A DNA stretch of 64,000 nt from positions 5,949-69,948 of IMG/VR virus record IMGVR_UViG_3300042049_000003; one strand, given 5' to 3'. Below are positions 37,877 to 63,393 of the stretch, in pieces; the first letter of the stretch is position 1, and each line of letters begins with the position of its first letter. The position numbers and the translations under genes were made by a program. Source of the DNA: a virus. The notes beneath the pieces are model-generated. The model saw only the letters and a list, made by a program, of their open reading frames with translations, was not told where the DNA came from and did no database searches.

Positions 37877-38530
37877 ATGCAAGTGGAAGAAGATGTAGAG
37901 ATAGACCTATTGCAAAAACTTGTACAAGATGTAAAACTTAGAGTTAAAGTTCTTGAACACACTTTTTCAGATAGGGAAGCAGTGCTAAAGAAAGCTCAAG
38001 ATGACTCAGAAATTACAGAGAGAGAGTTACAGGTTTTACAGCAAGTGAAAGAAGTTCTGTCTGCAATAACAGGTAAGTGTTTTAGTTCTGCTACTAAGAG
38101 GATAGAAGGTCTAGTTAATAAAGGGCTAAGTGAGGTTTTCGACGATCAGAACTTAGTATTCTCTATTCGGGCAAGTGTTTCAAGAAAGAAGAGTTTTGTA
38201 TCATTTCACTTAAGAGAGGGTTCAACTGGTGAGGATCTTCCTTTAATATCCTCTTATGGAGGAGGTGTTCTTAGTGTTATAGCAATTCTTTTGAGGATTA
38301 CAACAATTCACCTTCTAGAGAAAAGAAAGGTTTTGATCTTAGATGAGTCTTTATCTCAAGTCTCAGATGAGTATATAGAGAATTTATCAGCGTTCTTAAA
38401 CAACCTGTGTGAGAACAGTGATTTTATAATCCTTCTAGTCACTCATCAAAGAAAGTTCACTACTTATGCATCAGAACATTATCGAATGGTAAAAGGGTCG
38501 AATTCGACTACTTTAGAAAGGGTAACATGA
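37877..38530 (+). CDS. SbcC/Rad50-like ATPase, C-terminal half
   Basis: N-terminal coiled coil, then SSYGGG signature, LILDES Walker B and VTHQ H-loop. Confidence 0.85.
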   Translation: MQVEEDVEIDLLQKLVQDVKLRVKVLEHTFSDREAVLKKAQDDSEITERELQVLQQVKEVLSAITGKCFSSATKRIEGLVNKGLSEVFDDQNLVFSIRASVSRKKSFVSFHLREGSTGEDLPLISSYGGGVLSVIAILLRITTIHLLEKRKVLILDESLSQVSDEYIENLSAFLNNLCENSDFIILLVTHQRKFTTYASEHYRMVKGSNSTTLERVT

Positions 38531-41500
38531 GTAATTCAGACGAAGATCTATATGAAGTCTACTCAACAATGCAAGAGCAAATGTTGCCTGAGGATCGTCA
38601 AGCTCTAGAAGGAGGTTTTACTTCTGGAGGAAATCTTATAGACTTCATTGATCTAAGACCTGAACACACTCTAGATGAGTCTAAAGTGTTAAACCCTCCC
38701 ATTGTAAATGATGGTGAGGGTTTACTCACTTTTTTACGTAAAACACTTCATAAGTTCCAATGTCCTTACGCATATATAGGGGGGGAGGCGAACTCCCCTT
38801 CTGTAGATACATATAAAGACTCAAAGTTAAAGATTCTTATTTGCAGACTGTCAACTTATAACTCTGTTAGTTTGTCCATGTCTCACTCACTAATGGCTCA
38901 AATATATGCAGAGATAGACAACGTATTTTGTGATCTAGCTTTTCTTCCAAGCCCTAAAGACTTCGAACTATTATGTAAAAATAGTTTCCCTGTATGGTTT
39001 GGGTTAAACACAAAGTTAGGTGCTAAGAAGTTCGATATTTTATCCATAACACATGCAGTAGTTATGGAGCAGGTTAATTTCATTCCTTTACTATGGGAGT
39101 CAGGGATACCTATATTTAAATCACAGAGGATAGATGACGAGTCACAACCTATAATTCTGGTTGGGGGTTCCAATTCAGGGACAACAGCCCCTTTAAATGG
39201 AGAGTTTAAAGATAGTACAGGAAAGGTTCATAGAGGAATCATAGACTGTGTTATTTACGGTGATGGTGAAGAAGCTGCTAAACAGTTCGTAGAGATAGTT
39301 ATAAGTGGTAGAAAAGAGGGTAAGACAAAAAGGGAAATCTTTAGAGATTGCCACGGAAATGTAGAGGGTTTTTATGAGCCAGATTGTTACGAACACAATT
39401 ATGACGGGAAAGGTGTCTTAACCTCGATAACAAAGTCTAAAGGTAGAGAATATGCAGATCTACCGGTCGTACGCGCTACGGTTGAAAACTTAGATACTGT
39501 TAGAACATTAGAAGAAAAGATTTTACCTTACAGTGGTGACGGTACTTCCGTAGACGCTGCTATTGCAGGCTCAGTAGGGTGTATAGGTTCTGCGGGTTTA
39601 GGTGCATGTTCTTTTTGTAGAGAAGGGTCAGAAGGACCGTATAGAGAAAGATCTTTAGATAAAGTTATTGAAGCCATCGGGTTAGCTACAAAGAATCAAG
39701 GTACTAAAGAGGTAACATTCTTCTCTTTAAATTTTAACCAGTATGCAGACTTCTTCCCTCTAGTAGCGAAGAGTGTAGAGAAGGGTTATAAGGTTGGACT
39801 CATCTCACAACGGGTAGATATGCTTGCAGAAACACCTGAACAGATTTCTGTTCAGAAATGGTTAAAAAAATCTAATTATACTTTAGGGATAGAAGGAATT
39901 TCTGGAAGAACTAGAGCGTATTTAAACAAGAATCTTCAAGAGTGGGAGATTCTCAAGTGTGTTTATGTAATGATGAAAGAAGGGGCTTCGGAAATAAAAT
40001 TGTTTCAAATTCTAACAGGGTTAGAAACTGATGTAGACATCGATGAGTTCAATACATTGATGGAGAAGATCAATGCAATAAGAGCTAATTTAGGGGCTTG
40101 TACAAGGTTTAGGATATCTTTCACACCTCTATTTCCAGCAGCTTTCACAGCTCTACAGTTTGCACCTGTTAGAGCTGCTTTGAATCATGGGGCCAGGTTG
40201 GTAGATAAAGTTTTCATACGGGCTAAAGAACTAGGGTGGAATAGAAGGTTTTCAGTGACAAGGGAAGAACCTCTAATAGCAAACTCTATTACACATGGAG
40301 GTCGTGTACTTACAGATATTCTTGTTCGATCATACTTCTGTGATGATTATGTGTTCTACGGATGTATTCCTGAAGGAACTTGGGATAGGTGGGAGAGAAG
40401 AATAGATAAAGATCCTAATATAGATATAGATAGAATCTGGGGAGAGAAAGAGAAAGATTATGTATTTCCTTGGGAGGACATTGCTTACTCTACTACCAAA
40501 CAAATTTTGTGGTTAGGGTATGTAAAAGCTACTGCTTTTATGGGATCTACATATTGTCTATCTACTAGAACAGTTAAAGGGATATGTAAGTGGAGAGAGT
40601 GTGGGGCATGTGACCCTAAGAAAACAGGTAAGCCTAATGCACAAATAATGAAAAATATTGTAGGAAGAAAGGTAGCCCCTACTATACCAGTATCAAAGAT
40701 AGCAGAACTTGCTAAGACAAATGATAAGAGCTACCACGTAAGAGTCTTATTTAGAACAGAAGATCCTATATACCGGTACGTTAGTAAAGGGTATTTTTCT
40801 TGTCAAATACCACGAGCCTTAATGCTTACATCTCCTAAGTTTGATAATGCTTATATAACCAGTCTAGGACATGCCAGAATGTCGGCAGGAGCAAATACAA
40901 CCAAGGATTGGACTTTTGGAAGCAACATCTATGACTTTTCTTTACGAGAAAAAGTGTCGCAGCAAGAGTTAAAATCTATTCTTCCTGAAGCTAACAAGTT
41001 AATAGGTGAGGGAAGTATTTTAGATATAAAAGTAGAGACTCACCTAACTATGTTGAGAAACGACGTAGATTATGCTGTTTACAGTGTTTTCATCCCTAAT
41101 AAAGGGGTGACGTTTCATAAGCTTAGTACTGATATAGATAGGTTTATTGAAGCTCGTAATAAGGGAAAGAAGGCTTTTATAAATGTAAAGGTTGCAAAGG
41201 GAAAGGATTCTGTTGCTACGGTTAAGAAACTACTTTTAGATAAGGATGTAAGAGCGGTTACTTACCAATTTACCCCTGAATTTAAAGGTACATTAGTTAG
41301 AATGGCTATATCTGCAAACTTCAACCCTTTCGCTATGTTGGAAGCTATTACGAAGAGGAAGTTTCAGATGTGGAAAGAGTTCCCTATTTTCTGTGACGGG
41401 TATGTACAGGTTCCTAAGGTCGAAGGTGAGGTAGATTTGTTCGCTACTCTCCTAAATGAAAACCCTTTATGTAAAGCTACAGGGAGACAGATCGAGATAG

Positions 41501-41634
41501 ACTTATTTACAGGTAAAGTTCTACCTTCAGGATATAGTCTCAGCTCAGAAGATGGGATAGACAAAAACTATCCTATAGATATAGATGTCTTCTTCACCAA
41601 GAAATTAAAATCATTAGAGGAGTTATGCAAATAG
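38527..41634 (+). CDS. Large radical SAM protein (TIGR03960-like) with probable radical-SAM-linked (DUF2344-like) C-terminal region
   Basis: KILICRLS, FDILSITHAVVMEQVNFIPLL..SGIP, IILVGG, GDGEE, GCIGSAGLGACSFCRE (CX8CX2C) and LGIEGISGRTR; later YHVRVLFRTEDPIYRYVS. Confidence 0.75.
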   Translation: MSNSDEDLYEVYSTMQEQMLPEDRQALEGGFTSGGNLIDFIDLRPEHTLDESKVLNPPIVNDGEGLLTFLRKTLHKFQCPYAYIGGEANSPSVDTYKDSKLKILICRLSTYNSVSLSMSHSLMAQIYAEIDNVFCDLAFLPSPKDFELLCKNSFPVWFGLNTKLGAKKFDILSITHAVVMEQVNFIPLLWESGIPIFKSQRIDDESQPIILVGGSNSGTTAPLNGEFKDSTGKVHRGIIDCVIYGDGEEAAKQFVEIVISGRKEGKTKREIFRDCHGNVEGFYEPDCYEHNYDGKGVLTSITKSKGREYADLPVVRATVENLDTVRTLEEKILPYSGDGTSVDAAIAGSVGCIGSAGLGACSFCREGSEGPYRERSLDKVIEAIGLATKNQGTKEVTFFSLNFNQYADFFPLVAKSVEKGYKVGLISQRVDMLAETPEQISVQKWLKKSNYTLGIEGISGRTRAYLNKNLQEWEILKCVYVMMKEGASEIKLFQILTGLETDVDIDEFNTLMEKINAIRANLGACTRFRISFTPLFPAAFTALQFAPVRAALNHGARLVDKVFIRAKELGWNRRFSVTREEPLIANSITHGGRVLTDILVRSYFCDDYVFYGCIPEGTWDRWERRIDKDPNIDIDRIWGEKEKDYVFPWEDIAYSTTKQILWLGYVKATAFMGSTYCLSTRTVKGICKWRECGACDPKKTGKPNAQIMKNIVGRKVAPTIPVSKIAELAKTNDKSYHVRVLFRTEDPIYRYVSKGYFSCQIPRALMLTSPKFDNAYITSLGHARMSAGANTTKDWTFGSNIYDFSLREKVSQQELKSILPEANKLIGEGSILDIKVETHLTMLRNDVDYAVYSVFIPNKGVTFHKLSTDIDRFIEARNKGKKAFINVKVAKGKDSVATVKKLLLDKDVRAVTYQFTPEFKGTLVRMAISANFNPFAMLEAITKRKFQMWKEFPIFCDGYVQVPKVEGEVDLFATLLNENPLCKATGRQIEIDLFTGKVLPSGYSLSSEDGIDKNYPIDIDVFFTKKLKSLEELCK

Positions 41635-53322: not shown

Positions 53323-53757
53323 ATGAATGAAGAGAAAGAACAACGTAAATTAGACGAAGAGTTAGTTATCTCATGCACCTTGGGTCATACGAAAGTTGTT
53401 CAACTCCTCCTCGAAAACAGCGCAGACGTCAACACAACTGATAAGGATGGCAACTCACCCCTACATCACGCATGTTCAAGGGGACATACGGATGTTGTTC
53501 GACTACTCCTTAAAAACGACGCAAACGTCAATGCGATTAATAATGAGGATAACACACCATTATATATCGCATGTAGGTACGGTCATACGATAGTTGTGAA
53601 ACTCCTCCTCGAAAACGGCGCAAACGTCAACACAACTTATGGTAAAGGGTGGTCACCACTACGTATCGCACATTTCCTAGATTATATAGATATAGAAGAT
53701 CTTCTAAAAGTGTGTATCAAGAGAGAAGAGTTTAAAGAGAATAAAGAAAGGAAATAA
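53323..53757 (+). CDS. Ankyrin repeat protein, near-consensus class
   Basis: N-cap EQRKLDEEL, 3-4 repeats, C-cap. Confidence 0.95.
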   Translation: MNEEKEQRKLDEELVISCTLGHTKVVQLLLENSADVNTTDKDGNSPLHHACSRGHTDVVRLLLKNDANVNAINNEDNTPLYIACRYGHTIVVKLLLENGANVNTTYGKGWSPLRIAHFLDYIDIEDLLKVCIKREEFKENKERK

Positions 53758-53758
53758 A

Positions 53759-54487
53759 ATGATTAAAACGAAAGAACAAATTGAATTATATGAAGAGTTA
53801 AGTGTTGCATGTAGAGAAGGTCACACAGATCTTGTTAAAGAACTCCTCCTTAAAAAAGGTGTAGACGTCCACGTGAAGAATAAGTATGGAGAGTCACCAC
53901 TGCTCATCGCATGTTGGTTTGGTCATACGGATGTTGTTCAACTACTCCTCGAAAACGGCGCAGACGTCAACGCGATTAATAATGATAATAACACACCATT
54001 ATATATCGCATGTAGGTATGGTCATACGAAAGTTGTGAAATTACTCCTAGAAAACGGCACATCCATGATGACAATTAATAATGAGTATGGTAACACACCA
54101 TTATATATCGCATGTGTTGAAGGTAATACGGATATTGTTGAATTACTCCTCGAAAACGGCGCAGACGTCAACACGACTGATAAGTATGGCAACTCACCTC
54201 TGAATTTTGCATGTAGTAAGAGCTATATAGATGTTGTTCAACTCCTCATAGAAAACGGAGCAGACGTCAACAAGGTTAATGAGTATGGTGAGACACCACT
54301 GCATCACACATGTTTATGGGGTAAGACAGAGATTGTTAAACTACTCCTAGAAAACGGCGCAAACATCAACACAGTTGGTCAGTATGGCAAAACACCATAC
54401 GATATCGTATATAGGTCGGATGATAGAGAGATCATAAAGCTTCTAGAAGAACACATAGAAAGAGAATCAAGAAAGGAAATAAAATGA
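53759..54487 (+). CDS. Ankyrin repeat protein, near-consensus class
   Basis: 6-7 repeats with LLLENGADVN. Confidence 0.95.
   Translation: MIKTKEQIELYEELSVACREGHTDLVKELLLKKGVDVHVKNKYGESPLLIACWFGHTDVVQLLLENGADVNAINNDNNTPLYIACRYGHTKVVKLLLENGTSMMTINNEYGNTPLYIACVEGNTDIVELLLENGADVNTTDKYGNSPLNFACSKSYIDVVQLLIENGADVNKVNEYGETPLHHTCLWGKTEIVKLLLENGANINTVGQYGKTPYDIVYRSDDREIIKLLEEHIERESRKEIK
53945..53971 (+). repeat. 27-bp sequence shared among ankyrin genes (also 54146-54172 and 63259-63285)
   Basis: CTCCTCGAAAACGGCGCAGACGTCAAC is identical at three sites. Confidence 0.9.
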
Positions 54488-56113: not shown

Positions 56114-56224
56114 ATAATGTTTAGGTTGTTATACAGAGACTTCGAACTACTTATAACTTATATAAGAAGAAAGAAAGGTGATGTAAATCGCTTTATTAGC
56201 AATAAATTATTGGAGGGGAAGATC

Positions 56225-58816
56225 ATGGATAAAAGACAAAATTTCTGTATTGTACTTCCACCACCGAATGTGACAGGGACTTTACACATTGGACATGCTC
56301 TCAATAGTACGTTGCAGGATATTCTTATTAGATGGCGTCGCATGTGTGGTGACGATGTTTTGTGGCAGCCAGGCGTAGATCATGCTGGGATAGCTACTCA
56401 GATGGTTGTGACTAGAGAGCTTGAAAAAGAGCATGGTGTTGGATGTGTTTCTGGCATGGATCGTGACACTTTTCTTTCGCATGTATGGGCGTGGAAGAAA
56501 AAATCAGGTTCAAGGATTAAAGAACAGTTAGACCGCCTTGGGGCATCGTGCAATTGGGAGCGGGAACGCTTTACGATGGATGAAGAATTTTCTCGTGCTG
56601 TACGACATGCCTTTGTAACATTATACAGAGAAGGGTTGATTTTTCGTGATCATCGCCTGGTAAATTGGGATCCCTATTTAGAGACTGCTATATCAGATTT
56701 AGAGGTTGTTTCCAAGACAGTTCAAGGAACATTGTGGTATTTCCAATATCCCATAGAAGGTTGTAAGCAAACAATTACAGTCGCAACAACTCGTCCAGAG
56801 ACTATTCCAGGAGATACAGGGATAGCAGTTCATCCTGATGACAAGCGCTATAGGGGATTGATTGGTAAATTTGCAATTCTGCCAATGGTCGGTAGAAGAA
56901 TACCGATTGTTGCGGATAGTCATGTAGACCAGACTTTGGGGACGGGTGCTGTCAAAATTACACCTGCGCATGATATGGATGATTTTCAGATAGGCAAACG
57001 GCATAACCTGCGTAGCATTAACATTATGGACGTATCTGCTCACATTCAGCTTGCTGGAAATGAGGATTTCCTAGAGGGTTTGCCCGAAGAATCATCCAGA
57101 GAAGTTTCTGCAACGATAGATGCTCTAGATGGTTTGGATCGCTTTGCTGCAAGGGATTGGATTGTCAAGCATTGTGGTGAAACAGGTATTTTGGAAAAAG
57201 CTGTAGACCACGAGCATGTAGTTCCTTTTGGAGATCGTTCAGGAGTTCCCATAGAACCTTATCTCACATACCAATGGTTTGTTGATACGGCAGACATGGC
57301 TAAAAAAGCGATTGAAGTTGTAGAAGACGGGTCTATTAAATTTCATCCTGAGTCAGTGAAAAAAACCTACCTTAGTAGGTTAGAGACAATAGAACCTTGG
57401 TGTATTTCAAGGCAATTGATGTGGGGTCACAGAATTCCTCTATGGTATTCTGAGGATGGAGAGATATTTTGTGCAATATCAGAAGAAGATGCTCATAAAC
57501 AGGCAGAGAGTCACTTTAGGTTCGATGTTGAGTTAACTCAAGATACAGATGTTTTGGATACATGGTTTTCCTCTGCACTATGGGCGTTTGTAACTTTGGG
57601 ATGGCCTAACTCTACAATAGAGTTAGAGAAGTACTTTCCTAGTTCAATCTTAATGACAGGGTTTGACATTCTTTTCTTCTGGGTTACACGTATGATTATG
57701 TTCAGTTTGTATTTCATGAAAGATTTGAAAGGTGATGGGATTATTCCTTTTCGAGAGGTGTATATACACGCTCTTGTTCGTGATGAAAAGGGTCAGAAGA
57801 TGTCTAAATCCGCAGGGAATACTATTGATCCTTTGGACTTATGTGACAAATACGGTGTTGACGCTTTACGCTTTACCCTTGCATCTACTGCAACAATGGG
57901 GCAAGACATTAGAATTTCTGAAAGCAAAATGGAAAGCTGCCGTAATTTTTGTACAAAGATTCGGAACGCTGTAAAATACTGTCTGATAAACGAAGCCTTG
58001 CCACAGATAGGGTTTAATTCACAGACAGCGAAACATCCTATTAATAAATGGATTGTAGGTAGAAGTGCCTCGTTAGTAGAATCTGTAAGTTCTTCTCTTA
58101 AGGGATACCATTTTAATCGAGCAGCTGATAGAGTGTACTCCCACGTACGAGAGGAATTTTGTGATTTATATCTTGAGTTTTCCAAAGTCATTTTTTCTAA
58201 AGGGTCGTCTGAAGAGAAAGAAGAAACTAAAGCATGTATGGGATGGGCTGTGGAGAGAGTATTACAGGTTTTACATCCTTTTATGCCTTTTCACACACAA
58301 GGTCTTTCCTCTCTATTACAATGTAGTGGAAGTCTACAAGTCTGGCCTACGCTAGAAGAGCAAGAGAATGTACCACATGTTGACTTGATGGTGGTTTTGA
58401 TTGCAGAGATTAGGTCAATTCGTGCATCACTTAACATTTCTCATTCACAAGTATTCTGTATAAGTTTAGGTGACCTACCCGTCTATAATCTACACCAGAT
58501 TATAGAGGATTGTGCCAAAGTTAAGTGTAAAGAGGGGTTACAAGGTAAAAGTCTAGGTCTTTATATAGGGTCTTCAAAGGTAGAACTTTTTATTTTTGAT
58601 GAACTAGATTCAGACAACCTTATATCCACAACCACTAGAAAAATAGAAAGGGTAAATTTAAATATGAGTGTTATGAACAATCGTCTAAGTAATCCAGAGT
58701 TCATTGAGAAAGCTTCACCTTTTGCAATCGATAAATCTAGAAAGGATTTAGAAACCTTAGAGACAGATAAGCAAAATCTTCAGAAACTATTATGTCAATT
58801 GAAAGGTGTGGAATGA
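56225..58816 (+). CDS. valS: Valyl-tRNA synthetase
   Basis: LPPPNVTGTLHIGHAL (HIGH), DHAGIATQMVV, TTRPET and GTGAVKITPAHD editing domain, WCISRQLMWGHRIP, GQKMSKS, anticodon helix bundle and C-terminal coiled coil. Start ATG 56225 after GGAGG. Confidence 0.97.
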   Translation: MDKRQNFCIVLPPPNVTGTLHIGHALNSTLQDILIRWRRMCGDDVLWQPGVDHAGIATQMVVTRELEKEHGVGCVSGMDRDTFLSHVWAWKKKSGSRIKEQLDRLGASCNWERERFTMDEEFSRAVRHAFVTLYREGLIFRDHRLVNWDPYLETAISDLEVVSKTVQGTLWYFQYPIEGCKQTITVATTRPETIPGDTGIAVHPDDKRYRGLIGKFAILPMVGRRIPIVADSHVDQTLGTGAVKITPAHDMDDFQIGKRHNLRSINIMDVSAHIQLAGNEDFLEGLPEESSREVSATIDALDGLDRFAARDWIVKHCGETGILEKAVDHEHVVPFGDRSGVPIEPYLTYQWFVDTADMAKKAIEVVEDGSIKFHPESVKKTYLSRLETIEPWCISRQLMWGHRIPLWYSEDGEIFCAISEEDAHKQAESHFRFDVELTQDTDVLDTWFSSALWAFVTLGWPNSTIELEKYFPSSILMTGFDILFFWVTRMIMFSLYFMKDLKGDGIIPFREVYIHALVRDEKGQKMSKSAGNTIDPLDLCDKYGVDALRFTLASTATMGQDIRISESKMESCRNFCTKIRNAVKYCLINEALPQIGFNSQTAKHPINKWIVGRSASLVESVSSSLKGYHFNRAADRVYSHVREEFCDLYLEFSKVIFSKGSSEEKEETKACMGWAVERVLQVLHPFMPFHTQGLSSLLQCSGSLQVWPTLEEQENVPHVDLMVVLIAEIRSIRASLNISHSQVFCISLGDLPVYNLHQIIEDCAKVKCKEGLQGKSLGLYIGSSKVELFIFDELDSDNLISTTTRKIERVNLNMSVMNNRLSNPEFIEKASPFAIDKSRKDLETLETDKQNLQKLLCQLKGVE

Positions 58817-59817
58817 TTTCTTCAAAAGAGAAAGACTTGTTAAACAAACAACTTTTACAAATGCTTTACACAGGGAGTGAAGAGTGTGTTTTAAAGTTGC
58901 TTAAAGCAGGGGCAGACGTGAATGTGAACAATTCATTCACGTATTCCTTATTGCATCTAGCGTGTATAAAAGGGTACACAGAGGCTGTTAAGTGGATGAT
59001 AGATAAAGGAGCAGATGTTAACCTAATTAATTCCATTGGACAGACACCTTTCCATTACGCATGTAGGCACGGTTATGTAGAGATTATGAAGCTTCTTATA
59101 GAAAATGGAGTAGACATATATTTATTTAATAACGACGGTTACTCACCACTACACCTTTCATGTATTTATGACCAGAAAGAGTCTATCTTAGAACTCCTTA
59201 AAAACGGCGTAGACATCAACGTTCAGAGAGTGAATGGAGAATCACCTCTTGATCTTGCTTGTATAAGGGATAATAAAGATATTATTCAGATCTTGTTAGA
59301 TAATGGGGCAAAAGCTTTGTTGAAAGATAGTAACAAGCTTTCTACTTTGTCTAAAGCTCGTATTTCTGATAATGAGGAAGTTGTTAAATTACTTGAGACT
59401 GGTTTAGATGTTTTGAATAAAAATCAACATGAGTTAAATTGCACTCTTATTAGTGCTTGTTATAAAGGACATCATGATGTTGTCATATCTACGATAGAAG
59501 AAGGAGCAGACATAAATAGTATTAGTGAACATGGTAAGTCTGCATTATTCTTGTCGTGTAAGCATGGACATACAAGTATTGTTAAGTATCTTCTTGAAAA
59601 AGGTGCAGACGTGAATATAGCTGATAACTATGATAACACTCCTTTGTATGTTTCCTGTTCGAAGGGCTATTCGAAAACTGTAGCTTTATTACTAAAAAGT
59701 GGTGCAGATGTCAATCAAGCTAGTGTAAATCGTGAGACCCCTTTGAATTGCGCAAGGAGAAAGGGTTATACGAATTTAGTAGAGTTACTTGAGAGCTTCA
59801 TAATTTACTCTGTATAG
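58813..59817 (+). CDS. Ankyrin repeat protein (about 8-9 repeats)
   Basis: Overlaps the valS stop; GQTPFHYAC, GYSPLHLSC, GKSALFLSC. Confidence 0.95.
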   Translation: MISSKEKDLLNKQLLQMLYTGSEECVLKLLKAGADVNVNNSFTYSLLHLACIKGYTEAVKWMIDKGADVNLINSIGQTPFHYACRHGYVEIMKLLIENGVDIYLFNNDGYSPLHLSCIYDQKESILELLKNGVDINVQRVNGESPLDLACIRDNKDIIQILLDNGAKALLKDSNKLSTLSKARISDNEEVVKLLETGLDVLNKNQHELNCTLISACYKGHHDVVISTIEEGADINSISEHGKSALFLSCKHGHTSIVKYLLEKGADVNIADNYDNTPLYVSCSKGYSKTVALLLKSGADVNQASVNRETPLNCARRKGYTNLVELLESFIIYSV

Positions 59818-59851
59818 AATAAAGAAAGGAAATAAAATGGTTAAAACGAAA
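59809..59851 (+). repeat. Conserved gene-junction repeat (copies also at 53738-53773, 54463, 62754-62796, 63373-63407; weaker at 53296, 54880, 55610, 61404, 61501)
   Basis: (TCTGTAG)AGAATAAAGAWAGGAAATAAAATGRTTRAAACGA. 35/36 identity between 53738 and 59816, 40/43 between 59809 and 62754, and 35 bp identical between 62760 and 63373. Confidence 0.9.
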
Positions 59852-60646
59852 AATGTAACAGAGTTTAGGGGTTTGATTTTAACCGAAGAGCCAACAACAT
59901 CGAAACAAGTTCTTGTAGTGCATCCTGATATACGATCAAGAATAGACAAAATTATTCATGAGTTTAGACAGAGAGCCAAACTGAAATCACACGGCCTGTC
60001 TCACCGCAGGAAAATACTTTTGGTTGGGCCTCCTGGAACAGGTAAAACAATGACGGCGAATGTGTTGGCGCATGAGCTTCGTATCCCACTTCATACAATA
60101 CAAGTTGATCGTCTTGTAAGTCAGTATCTCGGAGAAACCAGCACAAGACTAAGACGGGTATTTGATTTCATGAAAGAAGAACTTGGTGTTTATTTCTTTG
60201 ATGAGTTTGATTCTATTGGTGGGGATAGAGGTTTAAGTAATGATGTTGTAGAAATGCGCCGTGTTTTAAATTCGTTCTTGCAATTTATAGAGCAAGATAT
60301 GTTGGATAGCATTGTTATTGCCGCAACGAATAACCAGGAACTTTTAGACAAAGCACTGTTTAGGCGTTTTGATGATGTCCTGTATTATAGTAACCCTACA
60401 GATGAGGAAAAACAACAATTGATAGAAAATGTATTAGGAACATTTAAACCTAAAGATTTCATGTGGGATCGTGTTATAGAGAACAGTTCTAATTTGTGTC
60501 ATGCAGAATTAGTTTCCGCCTGTCTCGACGCTGTTAAAAATGCGGTATTAGCAGATGAAAAGAAAGTTAGTGATTCAGACCTTTGTGACATGATTAACAA
60601 TAGAGAAGGTGAATACCATGTAATAGAGACTAAGGTTATTTCTTAA
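59837..60646 (+). CDS. AAA+ ATPase of the type normally paired with an S8 peptidase (IetA-like)
   Basis: GPPGTGKTMTA, YLGETSTRLRRVFD, YFFDEFDSIG..R...NDVVEMRRVLNSFLQFIEQD, IAATN, DKALFRRFDD. Confidence 0.85.
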   Translation: MVKTKNVTEFRGLILTEEPTTSKQVLVVHPDIRSRIDKIIHEFRQRAKLKSHGLSHRRKILLVGPPGTGKTMTANVLAHELRIPLHTIQVDRLVSQYLGETSTRLRRVFDFMKEELGVYFFDEFDSIGGDRGLSNDVVEMRRVLNSFLQFIEQDMLDSIVIAATNNQELLDKALFRRFDDVLYYSNPTDEEKQQLIENVLGTFKPKDFMWDRVIENSSNLCHAELVSACLDAVKNAVLADEKKVSDSDLCDMINNREGEYHVIETKVIS

Positions 60647-60726: not shown

Positions 60727-61371
60727 ATGTTTCCATCACGTTCAAGGGTCAATGTAGTTCCTATTGATACACGACAACCACCACAAAGTGGTGAACCTTT
60801 AAAAGAGTTCGTTAGTATTGTGGATATTATGAAAAGATACCCACCACCAGAGAAACCTGCTCGCAAGTCTTCACCGAAAGATTCTTCAAGCTCTGCGTCG
60901 AAAACTTCTTCAAGTTTTGCAGAGATGACTCGTAGCTTTGCAGATATGTCGGCTAGAAGCTACTACAAAAAAACACCTATATCACATGACGGTTTCAGTC
61001 CTCTTCATTATAACAGCGCAACAGGTCGTTTACTCCGTGTTCGTGAAGGTTTGATTAGCGGTGCTAATATTAATAGTAGAGATCAAGACGGCGCTACCCC
61101 TCTTCACCTAGCTTGCTTCTACGGTAAGTTACCAGTCATTAGACAACTTCTAATGAGCAAGGCAGATTTAACAATTCGAGATTTTAAAGGTTTTACAGCC
61201 TTGCACAGCGCTTGTATGTGTGGACATCCAGGGTGTGTTAGATCACTTCTAGTAGCAGGTGCTGATACGCATGTTAGAGATAATGAAGGTCGTACACCTA
61301 TCAACATTGCTCGTAATCACAAGCATTATCCAGTTGTAAACCTCCTAATGGCTAAAGAATTCAACCATTAA
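60727..61371 (+). CDS. Ankyrin repeat protein with Ser/Pro/Lys-rich disordered N-terminus
   Basis: About 88-aa leader (PPPEKPARKSSPKDSSSSASKTSSS) followed by 3-4 repeats. Confidence 0.93.
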   Translation: MFPSRSRVNVVPIDTRQPPQSGEPLKEFVSIVDIMKRYPPPEKPARKSSPKDSSSSASKTSSSFAEMTRSFADMSARSYYKKTPISHDGFSPLHYNSATGRLLRVREGLISGANINSRDQDGATPLHLACFYGKLPVIRQLLMSKADLTIRDFKGFTALHSACMCGHPGCVRSLLVAGADTHVRDNEGRTPINIARNHKHYPVVNLLMAKEFNH

Positions 61372-62714: not shown

Positions 62715-62781
62715 GTATAATTATGCACCTGTATAAAGAGAGAAGTCTACAAGTCTGTAGAGAATAAAGATAGGAAATAAA

Positions 62782-63393
62782 ATGGTTGAAACGAAAGATG
62801 AGAATGGTGACACACCACTGAATCTCGCATGTGCATGGGGTCATATAGATGTTGTTAAAGAACTCCTCGAAAACAGCGTAACCATCAACACAGCTAATAA
62901 GTATGGATACTCACCCCTGCATTTCGCATGTAGAGGAGATCATATAGAGATTGTTGAACTCCTCCTTAAAAACGGAGTAAACGTCCATATGACTGATAAG
63001 TATGAACAGTCACCACTACATTTCGCATGTATGTATAACCATACTGATATTGTTCGACTCCTCCTTAAAAACGGCGCAAACGTAGACATGGTTGATGAGG
63101 ATGGTGGCTCACCACTACACGTAGCATGTGAGTGTGGGCATACGGATGTTGTTCGACTCCTCCTAGAAAACGGCGCAGACATCAACAAGGTTGATACCGG
63201 TGGCTGGTCGCCACTATATTTCGCATGTTTTGAGGGTCATATAGAAGTTGTTAAACTCCTCCTCGAAAACGGCGCAGACGTCAACACAGTTGATAAGTTT
63301 GACCAGACACCTCTGTATATCGCATGTTTATATGGTCATATGGAGATCATAAAACTGTTAGAAGCACACATCGAGAATAAAGATAGGAAATAA
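62782..63393 (+). CDS. Ankyrin repeat protein, near-consensus class (6 repeats)
   Basis: GDTPLNLAC, GYSPLHFAC and similar; ends ENKDRK. Confidence 0.95.
   Translation: MVETKDENGDTPLNLACAWGHIDVVKELLENSVTINTANKYGYSPLHFACRGDHIEIVELLLKNGVNVHMTDKYEQSPLHFACMYNHTDIVRLLLKNGANVDMVDEDGGSPLHVACECGHTDVVRLLLENGADINKVDTGGWSPLYFACFEGHIEVVKLLLENGADVNTVDKFDQTPLYIACLYGHMEIIKLLEAHIENKDRK

Follow-up and report, generated by a model that had tools for sequence, protein, structure and literature searches.

ATPase gene and its place in the phage genome

IetA is the antitoxin of the protease toxin IetS, and the two proteins form IetAS, an abortive-infection system triggered by a phage protein (PMC13069673; 10.1101/2022.08.27.505566). 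In this study, an IetA-family ATPase gene lacking both the protease partner and the N-terminal domain (N-domain) of bacterial IetA was found in a 64,000-nucleotide (nt) stretch of phage DNA, positions 5,949 to 69,948 of the IMG/VR virus record IMGVR_UViG_3300042049_000003, which is hereafter called the window. An earlier sequence-only reading of the window had described the pair as a toxin-antitoxin pair of the Ti plasmid with an anti-phage role described later, in agreement with PMC13069673. The whole record comprises 72,577 bases (IMG/VR) and has a completeness of 68% according to CheckV. It belongs to a tailed phage and encodes terminase and endolysin, a major head protein, a tape measure and tail proteins, together with helicases, PolA, a UvsX-like recombinase and ribonucleotide reductase (RNR). 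DNA of this phage is present in four runs of one 'mollusc metagenome' study. Ankyrin-repeat genes in the same orientation are arrayed from about 46.3 kilobases (kb) through to the end of the record, and the ATPase gene is embedded in this array. Assemblies of two further samples yielded this phage again, as contigs of 76 kb and 42 kb, with the gene order valyl-tRNA synthetase (ValRS), ankyrin, ATPase, ankyrin; beyond the ATPase region these two contigs carry ankyrin genes only.

The gene encodes an IetA-type classical AAA+ ATPase with a complete motor and a C-terminal lid. All features of the classical clade are present, namely GPPGTGKT, VYFFDE, AATNN, FRRFD and the aromatic-hydrophobic-Gly motif YLG. 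The motif set quoted by the sequence-only reading lies entirely within this open reading frame (ORF), with YLGETSTRLRRVFD at residues 97-110, FFDEFDSIGGDR...NDVVEMRRVLNSFLQFIEQD at residues 120-154 and ALFRRFDD at residues 173-180, and both neighbours proved by Pfam to be the ankyrin-repeat genes it had described. Residues 95-108 are named pore loop 1 on our assumption that they correspond to this element of classical AAA+ ATPases in general. The protein matches Pfam AAA with an E value of 1.9e-29, the PADLOC IetA profile PDLC02196 with 8e-70 (residues 18-256 against profile positions 83-321 of 374) and NCBIfam IteA with 5e-62, the next families, PAN and FtsH, following at 1e-25 or weaker. The cut-off of the NCBIfam equivalog NF042959 (510 bits) is missed, at 210.1 bits with profile positions 85-322 of 367 matched, because about 85 N-terminal and about 45 C-terminal profile positions remain unmatched. 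This cut-off is narrow, since the full-length IetA of a phage with a complete pair scores only 288 bits. The coordinates of the gene, its motifs and its surroundings are listed in Table 1.

Table 1. Window positions of the ATPase gene, its motifs, its start junction and its two neighbours.
Feature	Position	Strand	Remarks
N-domain-less IetA-family AAA+ ATPase gene, 269 amino acids (aa)	59837..60646	+	ORF intact; IetA homology from about residue 9
Walker A, GPPGTGKT, residues 64-71	60026..60049	+	columns invariant in three alignments
Presumed pore loop 1 and next helix, residues 95-108	60119..60160	+	phage SQYLGETSTRLRRV; bacterial IetA TKFMGETSAKLRQI
Walker B, VYFFDE, residues 118-123	60188..60205	+	D122 and E123 invariant in alignments
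Sensor-1 region (AATNN, 162-166) and arginine-finger pair (R176, R177 in ALFRRFDD)	60320..60367	+	columns invariant in alignments
Cassette junction	59801..59836	+	in-frame TAA 59801-59803; upstream ankyrin stop TAG 59815-59817; Shine-Dalgarno-like AAAGGAAA 59824-59831
Upstream ankyrin-repeat gene, 341 aa	58792..59817	+	Pfam Ank_2, E 3.8e-78; fills the space of an IetA N-domain
Downstream ankyrin-repeat gene, 214 aa, Ser/Pro-rich leader	60727..61371	+	Pfam Ank_2, E 1.8e-36; position of IetS in bacterial loci

Bacterial relatives and their protease genes

The top database homologues are proteins of 322 aa with 70-75% identity over 94% of the query, the closest of them reaching 74-75%. On the two contigs of closest relatives that were opened, a Peptidase_S8 gene of 820-822 aa begins 3 nt past the ATPase stop, and PADLOC labels this adjoining S8 protein IetS. 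The neighbourhood set consisted of 83 loci, 80 from species genomes with relatives and three from metagenomes. An S8-like ORF on the same strand was found -72 to +62 nt downstream of the ATPase in 79 of the 83 loci, so that the homology and neighbourhood check proposed with the sequence-only reading returned nearest relatives that are linked to S8. Among the remaining four, one has no room for an S8 ORF and three are full-length bacterial orphans. These orphans (loci L021, L052 and L077; 3/80 genomes, about 4%) possess a full-length ietA including the N-domain, and no S8-like ORF is located downstream of it.

The nearest named genome is a metagenome-assembled genome (MAG) of the Emcibacteraceae with 74% identity. 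The next relatives, at about 60%, are spread across many phyla, a pattern expected of a mobile defence system. In the phylogenetic tree, the phage gene nests with 100/99 support beside the S8-linked IetA of the Emcibacteraceae MAG and two metagenome contigs, and a second tree constructed with IQ-TREE shows its nesting among IetA at 97/88 support. Scans of IMG/VR, for which the protein and two exact DNA patterns served as queries, returned no close relative; relatives were obtained through a protein cluster look-up. One run of the same study contains, at low depth, a contig end that matches canonical bacterial ietA at 30/30. The occurrence of a canonical ietA in this study is compatible with a local target and proves nothing.

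Loss of the partner gene and of the N-domain

No S8 gene was detected in the whole 72.6-kb record, neither by a Pfam S8 search nor by tblastn with two complete IetS proteins, which gave chance matches only. None was detected within 7-10 kb of the ATPase gene in the 76-kb reassembly or around a second allele described below (four other assemblies). The suggestion that the phage gene is an orphan, offered earlier together with a search for an S8 peptidase elsewhere in the genome, thus stands for the record, the reassembly and the surroundings of the second allele. The downstream ankyrin gene shows no similarity to IetS in tblastn with IetS proteins.

According to the alignment, about the first 58-62 of the 322 residues of IetA are absent from the phage protein. 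The AlphaFold2 model of a full-length IetA relative, with a mean predicted local distance difference test (pLDDT) of 81, displays helices at residues 4-13, 19-35 and 39-55 and a disordered linker at 57-63, followed by the AAA+ core. The missing part is equal to the three-helix bundle and linker of this model, so that a complete domain has been cut away at the linker. The core shows the classical-clade fold, as in PAN, Rpt, FtsH and p97, and is closest to the PAN/Rpt proteasomal ATPases. In these four families the N-domain recognises substrates or adaptors. No remnant of the N-domain was found in the record by tblastn, in which the N-terminal 70 residues of four complete IetA proteins gave chance matches only. 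An N-domain encoded separately or out of frame was considered and rejected, as tblastn was negative in the record as well as in the marine contigs described below.

The cassette junction in front of the ATPase gene aligns with those of the ankyrin genes starting at 53759, 62782 and 63395. A 35-nt motif, composed of the upstream stop, AAAGGAAA, the ATG and the first five codons, is near-identical before the ankyrin genes 53759 and 62782. With up to 3 mismatches, three copies of it occur in the window (53739-53773, 59817-59851 and 62762-62796), compared to 0 expected by chance. The cassette-derived part of the ATPase gene comprises the 5' untranslated region (UTR) and about six codons (codons 1-7, MVKTKNV), and the in-frame TAA of the junction leaves no room for a longer N-terminus. 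The sequence-only reading had described the native N-terminus as replaced by an ankyrin-cassette start; this is right for the 5' UTR and the six or so codons, whereas the loss itself is that of the whole N-terminal domain. The shared junction looks like a recombination handle by which cargo is moved between arrays. The loss of the N-domain may predate the capture of the gene into the array, because homologues in non-ankyrin phage contexts share the truncated architecture; an independent loss is also possible. A scan for promoters and terminators around the ATPase gene gave nothing above chance.

A second allele in an unrelated phage

A second allele, P0121 (278 aa), was retrieved from a 90%-identity protein cluster. 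It shares 92-94% protein identity with the window protein, and 95.7-95.9% DNA identity over 59830-60621, and within the same study it is carried by 8 contigs, which come from at least 5 samples. P0121 possesses the same truncation and a similar junction (MANTKNV...), and differs in the C-terminal tail and the ankyrin flanks. Compared with the phage of the window, the phage carrying P0121 has a PolA of 27% identity over 161 residues, an RNR of 39% identity and ankyrin genes of 39-54% identity, and its DUF5906 primase-helicase has no match in the window's phage. The depth ratios of the contigs of the two alleles are about 3.3:1, 1.4:1 and 0.4:1 in runs X1, X2 and X4, respectively. Since these ratios vary between runs, the alleles are placed on separate replicons. 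No other gene common to both phages comes close to the ATPase in conservation, which indicates lateral exchange of the cassette. Transfer of the gene between unrelated phages means that ankyrin arrays exchange non-ankyrin cargo via shared junction sequences.

The carrier of the second allele, a 61-kb contig (L113, examined at 1-20378), encodes the DUF5906 primase-helicase together with a dCTP deaminase/dUTPase, a 685-aa PolA, an HMUDK_hel protein and RNR. These replication genes are located on the strand opposite to the ankyrin array.

Selection on the phage gene

The ratio of non-synonymous to synonymous substitution rates (dN/dS) between the two phage alleles is 0.31-0.35, based on 20 synonymous and 27 non-synonymous differences at a synonymous divergence (dS) of about 0.13. 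For these 47 differences, the neutral expectation would be about 10 synonymous and 37 non-synonymous (binomial p = 9e-4). Three bacterial relatives compared with each other give a dN/dS of 0.04-0.05 at a dS of 0.74-1.03, and comparisons of phage with bacterium give 0.15-0.21 at similar dS. In the tree, the stem of the phage pair measures 0.31 changes per site, against 0.03 for the sister clade.

Changes on the phage lineage were also sorted by the conservation of the alignment column. They affect 8 of the 94 columns conserved at 97% or more (8.5%), 14 of 66 at 80-97% and 30 of 74 below 80%. The most conserved columns were spared, with 8.5% changed compared to 36-45% of variable columns (Fisher p = 1.6e-6, top class against the classes below 80%). 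Five of the eight deviations in the top class fall within residues 95-108 (hypergeometric p of about 1e-3), where pore loop 1 has passed from TKFMGETSAKLRQI to SQYLGETSTRLRRV on the phage lineage with its aromatic-hydrophobic-Gly signature retained. The phage protein also possesses the change G138V, at a position where the other 119 proteins of the homologue set do not vary. Intact motifs, a dN/dS below 1 and the sparing of conserved columns together argue that the phage gene is functional rather than decaying.

IetA-like genes in other phages

Where IetA-like genes are known in phages, they mostly belong to a full pair carried as cargo. Complete pairs of IetA and protease were found in the lambdoid Escherichia coli phage vB_EcoS-683R6, the Paenibacillus phage Yyerffej, the Enterobacter phage phiT5282H and an Acutalibacteraceae phage. 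Orphans without the N-domain were found in addition. P0055 (287 aa) and P0067 (293 aa) share 62-63% identity with the window protein, and their sequences start at about IetA residue 61. Both are encoded on phage-like marine-metagenome contigs between two conserved small genes, with ThyX, RNR, an M15 peptidase and a replication initiator nearby, and these contigs show no S8 gene and no N-domain remnant. Among the sequence library's best 150 hits to a library-wide profile search there are about eight further N-domain-less representatives, and any contexts that were read came from short contigs.

The window protein, P0055 and P0067 have the derived states T95S, F97Y, A103T, I108V, A126S, A146S and Q168E in common, as well as K190E, S205P, R207D, N230L, I244V and a V-x-E-F start. 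A single origin of the N-domain-less forms is supported by FastTree, which groups them (0.84); IQ-TREE separates them, and a single clade remains compatible with the approximately unbiased (AU) test (p = 0.29). The shared states could reflect either one old phage clade or convergence.

The RcSwan group of Rhodobacter capsulatus phages supplied more distant relatives: at least 15 of its cultured members encode an IteA-like ATPase of 337 aa with 30% identity to the window protein. It matches IteA with an E value of 3.6e-49, compared to 3.9e-24 for PAN, and it has neither an N-domain nor an S8 neighbour. In RcSwan itself (OP009286.1; L110, 3941-4954), the ATPase gene overlaps by 4 nt the upstream gene of a 441-aa FtsK-gamma/GapR protein and is translationally coupled to it.

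Several genomic contexts of these orphans were recorded. The marine contigs L115 (691-1554), L116 (6001-6882), L117 and L118 share a conserved block consisting of a gene of 126-137 aa, the ATPase and a gene of 132-136 aa. The third gene of the block overlaps the ATPase by 4 nt, and ThyX then follows; judged by this arrangement, the small coupled gene could be a new partner. On a 78.8-kb Tara scaffold (L119, 6001-6954), the 317-aa protein P0043 is a full-length orphan with the N-domain and without S8. Ankyrin-repeat genes and a DUF3560 gene lie to either side of it, and it represents a third independent association of IetA with ankyrin genes. P0127 (272 aa), encoded on a 50.7-kb contig (L120, 5001-5819; JGI 3300033149), lacks the N-domain and an S8 neighbour and has kept the bacterial-type pore loop unchanged. 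Its context of dense small overlapping genes is a phage-type early region, with a DnaA/IstB-like loader and an MT-A70 methylase.

Predicted complex with IetS

The model of IetS comprises an N-terminal region (1-275), an S8 domain (276-615) and a beta-rich C-terminal domain. The invariant residues D286, H320 and S551 are taken as the catalytic triad. A complex of the phage protein with residues 1-620 of the IetS of locus L004 (2264-4729) was modelled together with three controls. The complex scored 0.74, compared to 0.00 for the best control, and thereby passed a mark reached by 58 of 80 solved complexes and by 2 of 110 mismatched pairs. Three model runs have at least 78% of contacts in common, with a partner pLDDT of at least 77.

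In the model, the ATPase makes contact through residues 20-25, 37-48, 81-82, 194-204 and 229-233. The contacts on IetS are residues 254-269, 294, 319, 475-479, 519-527 and 539-545, which flank D286, H320 and S551 and are located in sequence beside His320 and just ahead of Ser551. A sequence search of the PDB returned no solved relative of the IetA or IetS family, and the pass is therefore not the recall of a solved complex. The complex model thus supports, but as a model does not demonstrate, binding of the phage protein to bacterial IetS near the catalytic residues. IetS proteins also show a short conserved motif at the extreme N-terminus (e.g. LPHI.L or RHIFL), followed in the model by a low-confidence stretch at 20-29. 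This motif resembles a tail on which an AAA+ pore could take hold.

Proposed function and alternatives

The most economical reading is that the phage protein is an antitoxin mimic, derived from IetA, which would block abortive infection by IetAS. We put its probability at about 0.5. The phage would produce the truncated IetA-like ATPase during infection, and this ATPase would bind the host IetS protease near its active site. IetS would then stay silent though the host IetA is inactivated or depleted, and the infected cell would avoid self-killing while the phage completes its cycle. More speculatively, the loss of the N-domain might leave the protein unresponsive to the trigger that inactivates native IetA, whatever this is. 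Purifying selection, the presence in two unrelated phages, the recurrence of N-domain-less orphans and the complex model lend indirect support to this proposal. The sequence-only reading had also named poisoning of the host IetAS as a possible role, which is unlikely because it would free the toxin.

A broader version of the mimic proposal is put forward with considerable reserve. N-domain-less orphan IetA might constitute a recurrent anti-IetAS class, occurring in the mollusc ankyrin-array phages, the marine phages and perhaps the RcSwan group, in which the protease-binding core was kept and the lost bundle was the switch that inactivates native IetA during infection. If this is true, the phage version would reveal how IetAS senses phages and how IetA, seated beside the active site, restrains IetS.

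Several observations weigh against an antitoxin mimic. Purifying selection on the phage gene is real, but about eight times weaker than on bacterial IetA. The near-invariant pore loop 1 has been rewritten, which could mean a changed or lost substrate. The N-domain probably matters for the native antitoxin function, because bacterial IetA proteins conserve it strongly. Of the four nearest orphan contexts, three are clusters of ankyrin genes, and these could point to an ankyrin-linked function. The IetS used for modelling is non-cognate, close cousins of true partners also pass, and the model is silent on affinity. Of the about 25 residues in predicted contact, five were substituted on the phage lineage, a proportion equal to the background rate; the interface is therefore not specially conserved.

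Some of these observations fit the main alternative, a repurposed ATPase, which we regard as unlikely. The protein would no longer act on IetS, and would unfold or remodel a host protein or the phage ankyrin proteins, for example as a chaperone in assembly or delivery. The specific rewriting of pore loop 1 and the removal of an N-domain of substrate- or adaptor-type conform to this, as do the location of the gene within the ankyrin arrays of two unrelated phages and the ankyrin flanks of the orphan P0043. The fold is nearest to the PAN/Rpt proteasomal ATPases, and gankyrin/Nas6, a chaperone built of ankyrin repeats, attaches to the lid of one Rpt subunit, which we count in favour of this alternative. 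However, N-domain-less orphans without nearby ankyrin genes exist on L115-L118 and L120 and in the Rhodobacter phages, and the complex model still supports IetS binding. Moreover, accessory regions gather unrelated cargo, as illustrated by the ValRS gene in the same array.

The gene could also be a functionless passenger, a fragment of bacterial ietA captured by recombination in the highly recombinogenic ankyrin array. Recombination at a junction gave rise to its 5' end, the level of non-synonymous change exceeds that of the bacterial relatives by a factor of 4-6, and the ValRS gene was captured in the array too. This explanation is improbable in view of an ORF that is intact in two phages after a dS of about 0.13 with a dN/dS significantly below 1, of the spared conserved columns, and of the same architecture recurring in other phages. 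Slightly less probable still is a dominant-negative subunit that joins host IetA hexamers and disables them. The oligomerising AAA+ core has been kept at 72-75% identity to bacterial IetA with the N-domain missing, as such a subunit might have it, but disabled IetA should free the toxic protease and trigger the abortive outcome that the phage must avoid. Systems with mutated ietA could not be cloned (PMC13069673), which also counts against it. There is only a slight chance that the gene is one half of a phage-borne defence or exclusion module whose toxin partner is a different protein or lies in the unsequenced part of the genome: the record is 68% complete (CheckV) and many temperate phages carry complete IetAS pairs as cargo, but the protease gene is directly downstream both in bacteria (79/83 loci) and in pair-carrying phages, four independent assemblies show no S8 near the ATPase, and no integrase was seen among the subset of genes examined.

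Relation to known systems

Compared with IetA (IteA) of IetAS, also called Gao_Iet, which is known as the plasmid-stabilising pair of pTiC58 and as an anti-phage system, the phage form has the same AAA+ core and lid at 72-75% identity with all ATPase motifs. It differs in the absence of the IetS partner and of the three-helix bundle, in pore loop 1 and the C-terminal tail, and in its location in an ankyrin array. IetA-family genes are likewise present on the genomes of vB_EcoS-683R6, Yyerffej and phiT5282H; unlike the orphan described here, these are full-length IetA genes (360-386 aa) with the protease directly downstream, and represent defence cargo. The sponge 'ankyphages' (10.1101/608950) are, as the phage of the window, tailed phages of animal-associated microbiomes with ankyrin-repeat genes. 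That literature (10.1101/608950) concerns the ankyrin proteins, and no IetA-type gene in the array is described in it.

The phage gene has two marks of an antitoxin mimic, being phage-encoded and homologous to a defence antitoxin. Dmd of phage T4 is a phage-encoded antitoxin mimic. For DarTG, such mimics are known in ICP1, where AdfB acts against DarT (PMC11481870), and in a chimallivirus with a DarG2-like antitoxin (PMC13309987). By analogy, the logic proposed here would be the same as for AdfB, the DarG2-like antitoxin and Dmd, with the antidote half alone preventing abortive infection. The phage IetA form differs from these three in being an ATP-driven motor of about 30 kDa, not a small binder or simple enzyme, and in that its neutralising activity is predicted.

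In the literature searched, no paper ties an IetA-type gene to counter-defence, and no IetAS inhibitor was found. The orphan, domain-deleted IetA in phages is new here and would add a variation to an established counter-defence strategy. Abortive infection by IetAS is widespread, and the system's mechanisms of sensing and restraint were still described as unknown in 2026 (PMC13069673). If the mimic proposal is true, the phage gene would be the first candidate anti-IetAS gene. It would provide a natural, selected separation-of-function variant, with the binding core and no N-domain, for dissecting IetAS, and a structural proposal on how IetA and IetS meet that experiments can address. Because Rhodobacter capsulatus phages with distant homologues are in culture, the idea can be put to the test in a laboratory host, and the RcSwan group could serve as a model.

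Other observations

An apparent joint of 60049 to 60311 in the read data was rejected as an artefact, caused by a different AAA gene of FtsH-like type whose match is confined to the Walker A and sensor-1 motifs. The replication module contains an ORF of 1035 aa (window 38527-41634) with no PHROG match at an E value of 1e-5. The Emcibacteraceae MAG, which has the closest named IetA, was considered as the phage host and is not shown to be so; the phage ValRS is merely 48% identical to its best match in this MAG. The ValRS gene itself is full-length and lies within the ankyrin array two genes 5' of the ATPase gene, at 56117-58816 of the window with a probable start at 56225.

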